A stretch of DNA of 64,000 nt from the NCBI GenBank assembly GCA_900316365.1, contig ONCO01000004.1, positions 74,918 through 138,917 of the forward strand, given 5' to 3'. Under the pieces are notes generated by a model. The model made no database searches. It saw only the letters and a program-made list of their open reading frames with translations, and was not told where the DNA came from. Position 1 is the stretch's first letter; every line of letters begins with the position of its first letter. A program made the translations under genes and the position numbers. Below, one piece after another: positions 27,813-28,986 of this stretch. Source of the stretch: an uncultured Erysipelotrichaceae bacterium. GTDB taxonomy: Bacteria > Bacillota_I > Bacilli_A > RFN20 > CAG-826.

Positions 27813-28986
27813 TCCCAGTCCCTATGACGGTGGGACTTCCCCAGGCTTTTCGTATCAAACTTTCGCGTGATTCCGTTCTTCGTCGCGGCCGGCGACGCTC
27901 GCTTTTCAGGAGAGGCGTTTTGTCATCCGCTTTCCCTATCGAGTTTTCTCCATCCAACTGGAGATGGGCTTCTTAATCGCTTCTGCGATTCTCTCGAGCG
28001 AAACCTGCCCTTATCCGAGGTCGAATCCATCTTGCTAGGTGAATCCTTGCTCAGCTCCTTAAGTCCTTGCGTTCCTAAGAGGTCTTTTCTTTCCATCGGT
28101 TCCCCGACGGCGTTTCTTGCGGGTAGTGTCCATGCCCGCCCAGTTTGTTAACAGGTCGCCAACTTCGTGAGTTGGTACCCTCTCTGGCGCAACAGTACCC
28201 GGAGGTACCTGGCTTCGTACTGACTTGACCCTTTCGGATCTAAGCCTTCTTGGAAGGACGAAGCGCCTTCCCTGGTTTGATATGGCCTTTTCCGACGGCT
28301 TACTAGTCCGTCCGCCATAACCAGCTGCAGAAGATTTCTCCTCTGGCTCCGAATGAGGATCACTTGCGCAACCCTTTCTTGAGTTCGATGTATGCTGGAA
28401 CTCCCGCCTTATCAGGCCAAACATCTTTTGATGAAAGCCCTATGCGGTTCGAGGTGGTTTTCTACGCCACCACTCAGGCTGGTGTCCAGGCCGTTTATTG
28501 GACGCCTGCTTTTCTTGAGGTCAGCCACTCAACCTCCTGGCTTGTGCGGGTGTACCGGTGAGATCGCTCCCACTGCCCTTGCCAGCATCCGAGAATACAT
28601 CCCGGGGTTCGTCTTGATTTCGGCTTTCGCCTTCATCTTCTCGCGGTCGAAGTCCAGACCGTCCGGATTGGGCCGGTTACCTTGATTGCTCAAGGACCGT
28701 ATCCGGCGCAGCTATCGCTAGCTGGGGTTCGATTTCGGATGAAGAAGCACGCTCCCTCATCTTCTTAGGACCGAATTACCAGGTCCTGAAGCTTGGCGGG
28801 TTACAATCGATTACTCGATCACCCTAGCTCCTAACAGGTGGAATCACTCCCGCCTGCGGTTCGGCTCGCTCGTCACGACACGTTCACGAGTTTCTTAGGA
28901 TCGAAGTTCCAGATCCTCCGATTTAACAGGTATCTCTTTGTTACCAAAAAGGCCCTAATCGGTTAACGCCCCGTTTCCAAGGCGTC
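27787..28986 (-). ncRNA. Large (~1.2 kb) modular structured RNA of nine ~130-nt structurally repeated units; family not recognised
   Basis: It has its own consensus promoter and terminator and no credible ORF. Stems are dense, with GNRA loops and G-U pairs that work only on the minus strand. Hairpin-AAGAA-hairpin-GAACC recurs with ~130-nt spacing. Confidence 0.85.

Follow-up and report, generated by a model that had tools for sequence, protein, structure and literature searches.

Does a 1.2-kb, ORF-poor stretch of an uncultured Erysipelotrichaceae bacterium (GTDB genus CAG-826; GenBank GCA_900316365.1, contig ONCO01000004.1) encode a non-coding RNA built of repeated pseudoknots, and if so, what could such an RNA do? 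The window, i.e. the whole stretch of DNA that was analysed, comprises 64,000 nucleotides (positions 74,918 to 138,917 of the contig, forward strand). From the letters of its minus strand alone it had been proposed that nine units (U1-U9, here modules M1-M9) each carry a hairpin whose loop pairs with a downstream GAACC element, leaving a small bulge, that loop and element change in a compensating way, that U4 fits only partly and U8 has lost the pairing, and that an adjacent AAGAA is the A-rich linker of an H-type pseudoknot, each unit being perhaps a binding pocket, an exonuclease roadblock or a catalytic core. Our analysis confirms the pairing that was noticed and extends it to other lineages, whereas the accompanying interpretation is supported only in part.

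A stand-alone RNA gene made of tandem modules

The minus strand of 27781-29019 is a single transcription unit with a perfect sigma-70 promoter and an intrinsic terminator (Table 1), and it contains no ORF over 121 aa. It lies between a PTP-NUDIX fusion gene on the same strand and a convergent rimK-like gene. A cmscan of 26500-30500 against Rfam 15 at E<=1 returned only two chance CRISPR-repeat hits (0.5 and 0.66), and the whole window at gathering scores gave only a tRNA, thus no family matched, including preQ1-I/II/III, SAM-II/V, ToxI, CsrB/Rsm, ROOL, GOLLD, OLE, raiA, HEARO, pistol, hatchet, twister, HDV-like and xrRNA. Although Tandem Repeats Finder detected no repeat, AAGAA recurs every 94-144 nt, and folding of each interval gave the same series of hairpins. 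A 645-nt stretch folded better than all 20 of its shuffles (z = -2.7). Full-text literature searches found no description of such an RNA, and neither expression nor probing data were examined.

To define the module, the window was compared with the one relative that BLAST could find (genome G025 of the same genus, 77% identity over 274 nt). The module of about 128 nt consists of P1 (5-7 bp) with a loop L1 of 7-12 nt; AAGAA, which follows P1 at once; P2, a variable hairpin; J, a single strand with the consensus CGAACC; P3, a hairpin often capped by a GNRA loop; and P5, which encloses (N)UA-GGG, then P4 (often GNRA-capped), then CCY-GYNAAG. The 3' strand of P5 abuts the next P1 with 0-1 nt, and J abuts P3 with 0-3 nt. 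The RNA is composed of a 5' half-module, seven full modules (M1-M7), two degenerate ones (M8, M9) and the terminator.

Table 1. Features of the RNA gene, all on the minus strand (window coordinates; AAGAA starts at the higher number).
Feature	Coordinates	P1 and L1	AAGAA	J	Remarks
Promoter	28992-29019				TTGACA, 16 nt, TATAAT; 12 of 12 consensus positions
5' leader	28918-28985				Half-module: P3-like hairpin plus P5/AUAGGG/P4(GUAA) arm, abutting P1 of M1; matches positions 62-132 of the covariance model
M1	28788-28917	P1 28912-28917/28897-28902; L1 28903-28911 UGGAACUUC	28892-28896	GAACC 28858-28862	
M2	28662-28787	L1 28773-28781 UGGUAAUUC	28762-28766	GAACC 28726-28730	
M3	28537-28661	L1 28649-28656 UGGACUUC	28638-28642 (GAGAA)	GAACC 28606-28610	
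M4	28404-28536	L1 28522-28531 UGAGUGGCUG	28512-28516	CAGCC 28477-28481	Pairs with GGCUG; -8.3 kcal/mol
M5	28272-28403	L1 28387-28397 CAGCAUACAUC	28376-28380	GAGC(C) 28345-28349 (GAGC 28346-28349)	GC..UC pairs with GAGC
M6	28140-28271	L1 28258-28265 CGCUUCGU	28247-28251	ACGAAGC 28212-28218	Contiguous 7-bp pairing; -10.1 kcal/mol
M7	27991-28139	L1 28124-28134 CAUGGACACUA	28114-28118	AGACC 28081-28085	Weak pairing
M8	27898-27990	P1 with AGAA tetraloop	27970-27974		Degenerate; no J and no P3; P5/AUAGGG/P4 arm kept; 16.5 bits
M9	27781-27897	P1 with CGGCC loop	27876-27880		Degenerate; only GGC/GCC; joined to the terminator
Intrinsic terminator	27789-27816				With a U tract

A covariance model was built from the M1 pair and then rebuilt from eleven modules; matches to it tile the RNA end to end without gaps. 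In an alignment of 34 rows, 90.9% of cells were paired, 292 cells changed on both sides against 85 in shuffles, and pairing dropped below 50% when the partners were slid by one column. This alignment is fitted to the model, hence the counts lean towards it, but the margin is large. Frequent G.U pairs fix the minus strand as the functional one, and SNPs between strains that fall in stems are mostly wobble-preserving. Modules are 120-144 nt long, paralogues are about 60% alike, and orthologous modules are more alike than paralogous ones.

The rebuilt model found the array in 5 of 58 species genomes of the genus (designated G000, G025, G068, G073 and G077), in none of about 340 genomes of 69 other genera of the order, in none of 398 other genomes of the class, and in none of the 12 nearest non-carriers even at E<=0.5. 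The RNA is single-copy in its own genome. In six non-carriers the PTP-NUDIX gene is followed directly by the convergent gene, so the site is empty. Homologues of the PTP-NUDIX protein led to three more carriers in metagenome assemblies (lineages A, B and C), each with a gene-free gap of 1.25-1.4 kb filled by the modules, which brings the number of other lineages with the RNA to seven. Equivalent promoters with A/T-rich upstream tracts stand in front of the homologous RNAs. Ten contigs of the window's own species are 99.4-100% identical, and in none is a gene called in the gap. In G000, G068, G073/G077, A, B and C the RNA lies in the same mscL / PTP-NUDIX ... glnA neighbourhood, while in G025 it does not.

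Other searches gave nothing further. Scans of genome and metagenome contigs with the pattern CTGG..TTCG..AAGAA..CGAACC, which proved too loose, returned single chance matches, and an HMM of the module found no array in the 240 loci examined, neither scan being exhaustive. Among viral contigs, a two-module pattern gave 0 hits and a single-module pattern gave 32 chance hits, none of which was recognised by the module HMM; blastn against phage and plasmid collections gave no match.

Complementarity of the P1 loop and the J strand

In every M1-M7 module of the window, J starts 26-31 nt after AAGAA. The pairs proposed originally for U1, U2, U3, U5 and U6 are present as described. U4, however, does pair: the P3 hairpin with the GUAGAA loop is orthologous in all lineages and fixes J between P2 and P3, at the homologous offset (+30 after AAGAA), where the window has CAGCC, whereas the GAACC considered originally lies about 30 nt further on and belongs to P5. 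The pairing proposed for U7 (GG..CU/AG-A-CC) needs bulges on both strands and scored 0 in our scheme, the 3-bp match in U9 is uninformative, and U8 has no pairing, as had been said.

A lack of loop/GAACC covariation among homologous units had been named in advance as an outcome that would speak against the pseudoknot; what the homologues showed is the opposite, since where J differs, L1 differs to match (in the pairs below, W is the window, L1 is given before J, and ^ marks the bulge). M1 and M2 carry GG^UUC/GAACC in all lineages, L1 and J of M1 being identical in all of them except G068, whose L1 bulge is one base shorter. M3 has GG^UUC/GAACC in W, A, B and C, GGAUC/GAUCC in G025, and UUGCUUG/CAAGCAA in G068, G073 and G077. 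M4 has GGCUG/CAGCC in W, A and B, GGAUUG/CAAUCC in C, and GG^UUC/GAACC in G025, G068 and G073. M5 has GC^UC/GAGC or GGC^UC/GAGCC, depending on the lineage. M6 has GCUUCGU/ACGAAGC in W, GCUUCGU/ACGGAGC in A and B (U-A becomes U.G), GCUUCA/UGAAGC in G025, GCUUCC/GGGAGC in G073 and G077, CUUCC/GGAAG in G068, and GCUUCU/GGAAGC in C. M7 has GG^UUC/GAACC in G025 and GG^ACC/GGUCC in G068 and G073, while in W, A, B and C it is weak or absent. So positions 2, 3 and 4 of the five-pair consensus each show double changes, and the sixth pair of M6 is G-C, A-U, C-G or U.G in different lineages.

A nearest-neighbour duplex model (RNAduplex) assigns the interrupted consensus pairing, which is only 2+3 bp around a 2-5 nt bulge, no more than -2 to -4 kcal/mol, while the contiguous variants reach -7.7 to -10.3 kcal/mol. 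Because this model penalises the interrupted helix, it was abandoned as the test statistic, and the best one- or two-block complementarity, with an L1 bulge of up to 6 nt, was scored instead, using the same optimisation of register for native and control pairs. With hand-delimited J segments from four lineages, and module labels permuted while orthologues were kept together, the native L1-J assignment was the single best of 5040 permutations; the native score was 139 against 101.5 +/- 6.4 for shuffled L1, with 0 of 1000 shuffles as high. With objective fixed windows (+18..+40 after AAGAA) the native assignment ranked 2-26 of 5040 across nine parameter settings, and with seven lineages it ranked 2 of 5040. 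Delimitation of J by MFE folding was too noisy to be used. The register of the pairing shifts between lineages, so column-based counts fail: the model-fitted alignment gives only 72-73% paired, since variant modules are forced into the consensus register, and a MAFFT alignment of M6 orthologues shifts register as well; neither was used as evidence, and neither R-scape nor pseudoknot-aware folding was applied. There are only about five or six independent lineages. Pairings of L1 with the J of a neighbouring module scored clearly lower than native ones, and the contact is therefore within a module or between equivalent modules of two molecules.

Predicted fold and possible roles

From these results, we infer a hairpin-loop-to-outside (H-type) pseudoknot in at least six of the modules, with P1 as stem 1, L1:J as stem 2, a single base (usually U) as loop 1, no loop-2 bases, and AAGAA-P2 as loop 3; our confidence in this structural reading is about 0.8. 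What the analysis itself shows is that P1, P3, P5, P4a and P4b covary strongly in M1-M6, and M7 in some lineages, and that L1 and J are complementary in a module-specific way and change together between modules and species. The remainder is inference from geometry and analogy: that AAGAA runs along the minor groove of P1, that P2 is a hairpin inserted in loop 3, and that the helices of neighbouring modules probably stack, giving a rigid periodic architecture which the GNRA loops on P3 and P4 help to pack. AAGAA lies where the 5' part of loop 3 would run, directly after the 3' arm of P1, and this placement was not tested. The motif is [A/G][A/C]GAA in 46 of 49 M1-M7 modules (lineages A and B have AAAUA in M7), and it stays constant while L1 changes, so it is not itself a pairing partner of L1. 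A conserved pocket at the bulge is not supported: the bulge is 0-6 nt long, varies in sequence, is absent in M6, in M3 of three lineages and in M4 of four, and in M5 it even carries one of the few within-species SNPs.

The function of the RNA is unknown, and nothing tested points to a partner. Speculatively, and with less than even confidence, the whole RNA may act as an architectural RNA-only or RNP particle, whose repeated modules play the part that separate subunits play in the homo-oligomeric ROOL and GOLLD RNAs. Four features favour such an integrated structural role over interchangeable units: the number, order and length of modules conserved in all lineages, the linker-free junctions, the GNRA loops, and the freedom of helix sequences. 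A bolder form of this reading, which we consider unlikely but which would be of high interest if true, is a natural covalently concatenated pseudo-oligomer, in which seven to nine diverged copies joined without linkers would fold into a closed or helical pseudo-symmetric RNA nanostructure, a single-chain counterpart of the ROOL and GOLLD cages and an RNA analogue of tandem-repeat proteins; the higher-order assembly of the RNA was not measured.

Among the alternatives, a multivalent decoy or scaffold for an RNA-binding protein or nuclease survives best, though it is also unlikely. In this view, each module would present the conserved purine-rich strands (AAGAA, UAGGG, GYNAAG) as one binding site, as CsrB/RsmZ do in bacteria or the repeat-unit lncRNA NORAD does in animals. 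Seven to nine equivalent modules in one strongly promoted transcript, invariant bases that are few and are single-stranded purines while the helices vary freely, and the GGA carried by many L1 loops speak for it. On the other hand, CsrA (PF02599) is absent from 58 of 58 genomes of the genus, while the same search detected it in E. coli, B. subtilis and T. maritima, and L1 changes with J, including loops without GGA, so L1 is constrained by pairing and not by a protein motif. A CsrA sponge was rejected on the absence of CsrA. No protein gene is specifically linked, as the neighbours differ between lineages and the PTP-NUDIX gene is a core gene present in 55 of 58 genomes, most of which lack the RNA, which led us to reject a functional link with it.

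Pairing in trans, where L1 of one molecule would pair with J of the equivalent module in a second copy to give a domain-swapped dimer or higher oligomer, appears less probable still. Covariation does not distinguish cis from trans, GOLLD, ROOL and OLE form homo-oligomers (PMC12286853), and the consensus pairing is too weak to be stable on its own; however, L1 and J are only about 45-60 nt apart on the same chain with a constant offset, so cis pairing is strongly favoured entropically, and the single-base loop 1 and zero-base loop 2 fit a classical cis H-type geometry. An aptamer array that buffers or senses a small molecule or ion, with a pocket at the bulge and A-rich linker, is improbable: the architecture is that of the preQ1-I/II and SAM-II/V aptamers, but no riboswitch family matched, the RNA ends in a terminator facing a convergent gene without a downstream gene or expression platform, and whole L1/J sequences are replaced in some modules. 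It is about as improbable that no pseudoknot exists and that the complementarity is a by-product of conserved sequence in duplicated modules plus chance: M1, M2 and most M4 modules share the same L1 and J by inheritance, and the consensus helix is very short, but at least ten distinct L1/J pairs are all complementary and the native pairing withstands permutation and shuffling. Processing into unit-length RNAs by self-cleavage or by a partner endoribonuclease is the least likely, as the resemblance to ToxI arrays is countered by the length and divergence of the units, the lack of ToxI or ribozyme matches, the lack of a downstream toxin gene in any lineage, and P5-P1 junctions that leave no obvious cleavage linker; self-scission and exonuclease stalling were not assayed.

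Relation to known structured RNAs

Large bacterial non-coding RNAs with rich tertiary structure are few, and their functions are a long-standing puzzle. The building principle of this one is unusual: one multi-helix pseudoknotted module was duplicated long ago, and each copy kept its position, length and fold across species while its sequence drifted. It thus offers a natural experiment in RNA fold conservation, with ten or more sequence solutions for the same pseudoknot, a well-defined cryo-EM target of about 1.2 kb, and a test of whether RNA can build pseudo-symmetric assemblies by internal repetition, as proteins do, although it is confined to a subset of one uncultured Bacilli genus, is absent from close relatives at the same site and has no known function or partner.

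H-type pseudoknots with an A-rich linker crossing the minor groove of the stem are established in ligand pockets, type III antitoxins and nuclease-resistant RNAs. The core of one module has the topology of the preQ1-II and SAM-II/SAM-V aptamers: a hairpin loop pairs with a downstream strand, loops 1 and 2 are minimal, loop 3 begins A-rich, and a hairpin (here P2) is inserted in loop 3, as in preQ1-II. It differs in that the RNA is not in a 5' UTR, the pairing sequences and bulge lack the invariance expected of ligand-contacting nucleotides, and the module also carries P3 and a P5/P4 arm and is repeated seven to nine times.

With type III antitoxin RNAs (ToxI, CptI, TenpI) it shares tandem pseudoknot-forming units in a non-coding transcript with its own promoter and terminator. 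Those units, however, are near-identical direct repeats of 34-45 nt cut by an adjacent toxin endoribonuclease, while here each diverged unit has an orthologous identity across species and the flanking genes are rimK-like, AAA_14, a lipoprotein-like ORF and a Big_3 protein; ToxN (PF13958) was not detected in the five carriers, although that search had no positive control. A type III antitoxin role is not supported by these comparisons. CsrB/RsmZ-type sponges likewise have many equivalent hairpins in one abundant transcript, with GGA in many loops, but the loops of the present RNA covary with a downstream strand and its units are large multi-helix folds.

The large ornate RNAs ROOL, GOLLD, OLE, raiA and HEARO, whose models did not match, are also long (more than 500 nt), strongly structured, covarying and ORF-free, rich in GNRA loops, of unknown function, and patchily distributed in Bacillota of gut, rumen and similar habitats; ROOL, GOLLD and OLE are multivalent assemblies (PMC12286853). 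Those RNAs are single non-repetitive folds that oligomerise, whereas this one, of which no phage or plasmid copy was found in the collections searched, repeats a module within one chain.

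Genomic surroundings of the RNA gene

A Y_phosphatase3-NUDIX (PTP-NUDIX) fusion protein is encoded directly upstream of the RNA. It is a core gene of the genus, present in 55 of 58 genomes, and keeps its place next to mscL. The long ORF call that includes this gene overlaps the mscL gene, and in some assemblies the two calls are fused. On the other side, the terminator hairpin of the RNA lies 4 nt beyond the stop of the convergent rimK-like gene and may serve both transcripts.

At the syntenic site in six non-carrier genomes (G010, G031, G024, G011, G075 and G016; loci L288-L293), the PTP-NUDIX gene is followed at once by the convergent gene. 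The PTP-NUDIX proteins of G010 and G031 are as close to that of the window (60% and 54%) as that of the metagenome lineage C (56%), which does carry the RNA, and this implies repeated loss or lateral gain of the RNA gene. Large variable genes sit next to the RNA in other lineages: a 1440-aa ORF lies between PTP-NUDIX and the RNA in the carrier genome G077, and a 633-aa Big_3-domain protein is encoded downstream in the carrier genome G068. The surroundings of the RNA gene are a variable spot.

Coordinates of the features surrounding the RNA gene and of the sequences compared with known families
Feature	Sequence	Positions	Strand
Y_phosphatase3-NUDIX fusion gene	window	29071-30141	-
Long ORF call	window	29071-30390	
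mscL	window	30209-30919	
Terminator hairpin of the RNA	window	27789-27816	
rimK-like gene	window	26904-27785	
CRISPR-DR17 match	window	27969-27993	+
nrdD leader	window	32692-32823	
1440-aa ORF	L297 (G077)	4591-8913	
Big_3-domain protein gene	L296 (G068)	7198-9099	

Variation in modules M7 and M4

In the two closest relatives (loci L330 and L332), the AAGAA of module M7 reads AAAUA, while L1, the loop of hairpin P1, and J, its downstream partner strand, are the same weak pair as in the window. M7 may be decaying in this sub-lineage. In module M4 of lineage C (locus L333), GGAUUG occurs twice, in L1 and just after AAGAA, and J (CAAUCC) could consequently pair either way, as a pseudoknot or as an extended P2. 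Such an arrangement may be a switch, or a trace of how new L1/J pairs arise.

Comparison with known RNA families

The nrdD leader was flagged in the original prediction as a four-way junction; at gathering scores, no Rfam family was found anywhere in the window apart from one tRNA. A weak match to CRISPR-DR17 (23 bits, E = 0.5) is the reverse complement of the P1 hairpin of module M8, and is a chance resemblance and not a CRISPR repeat.
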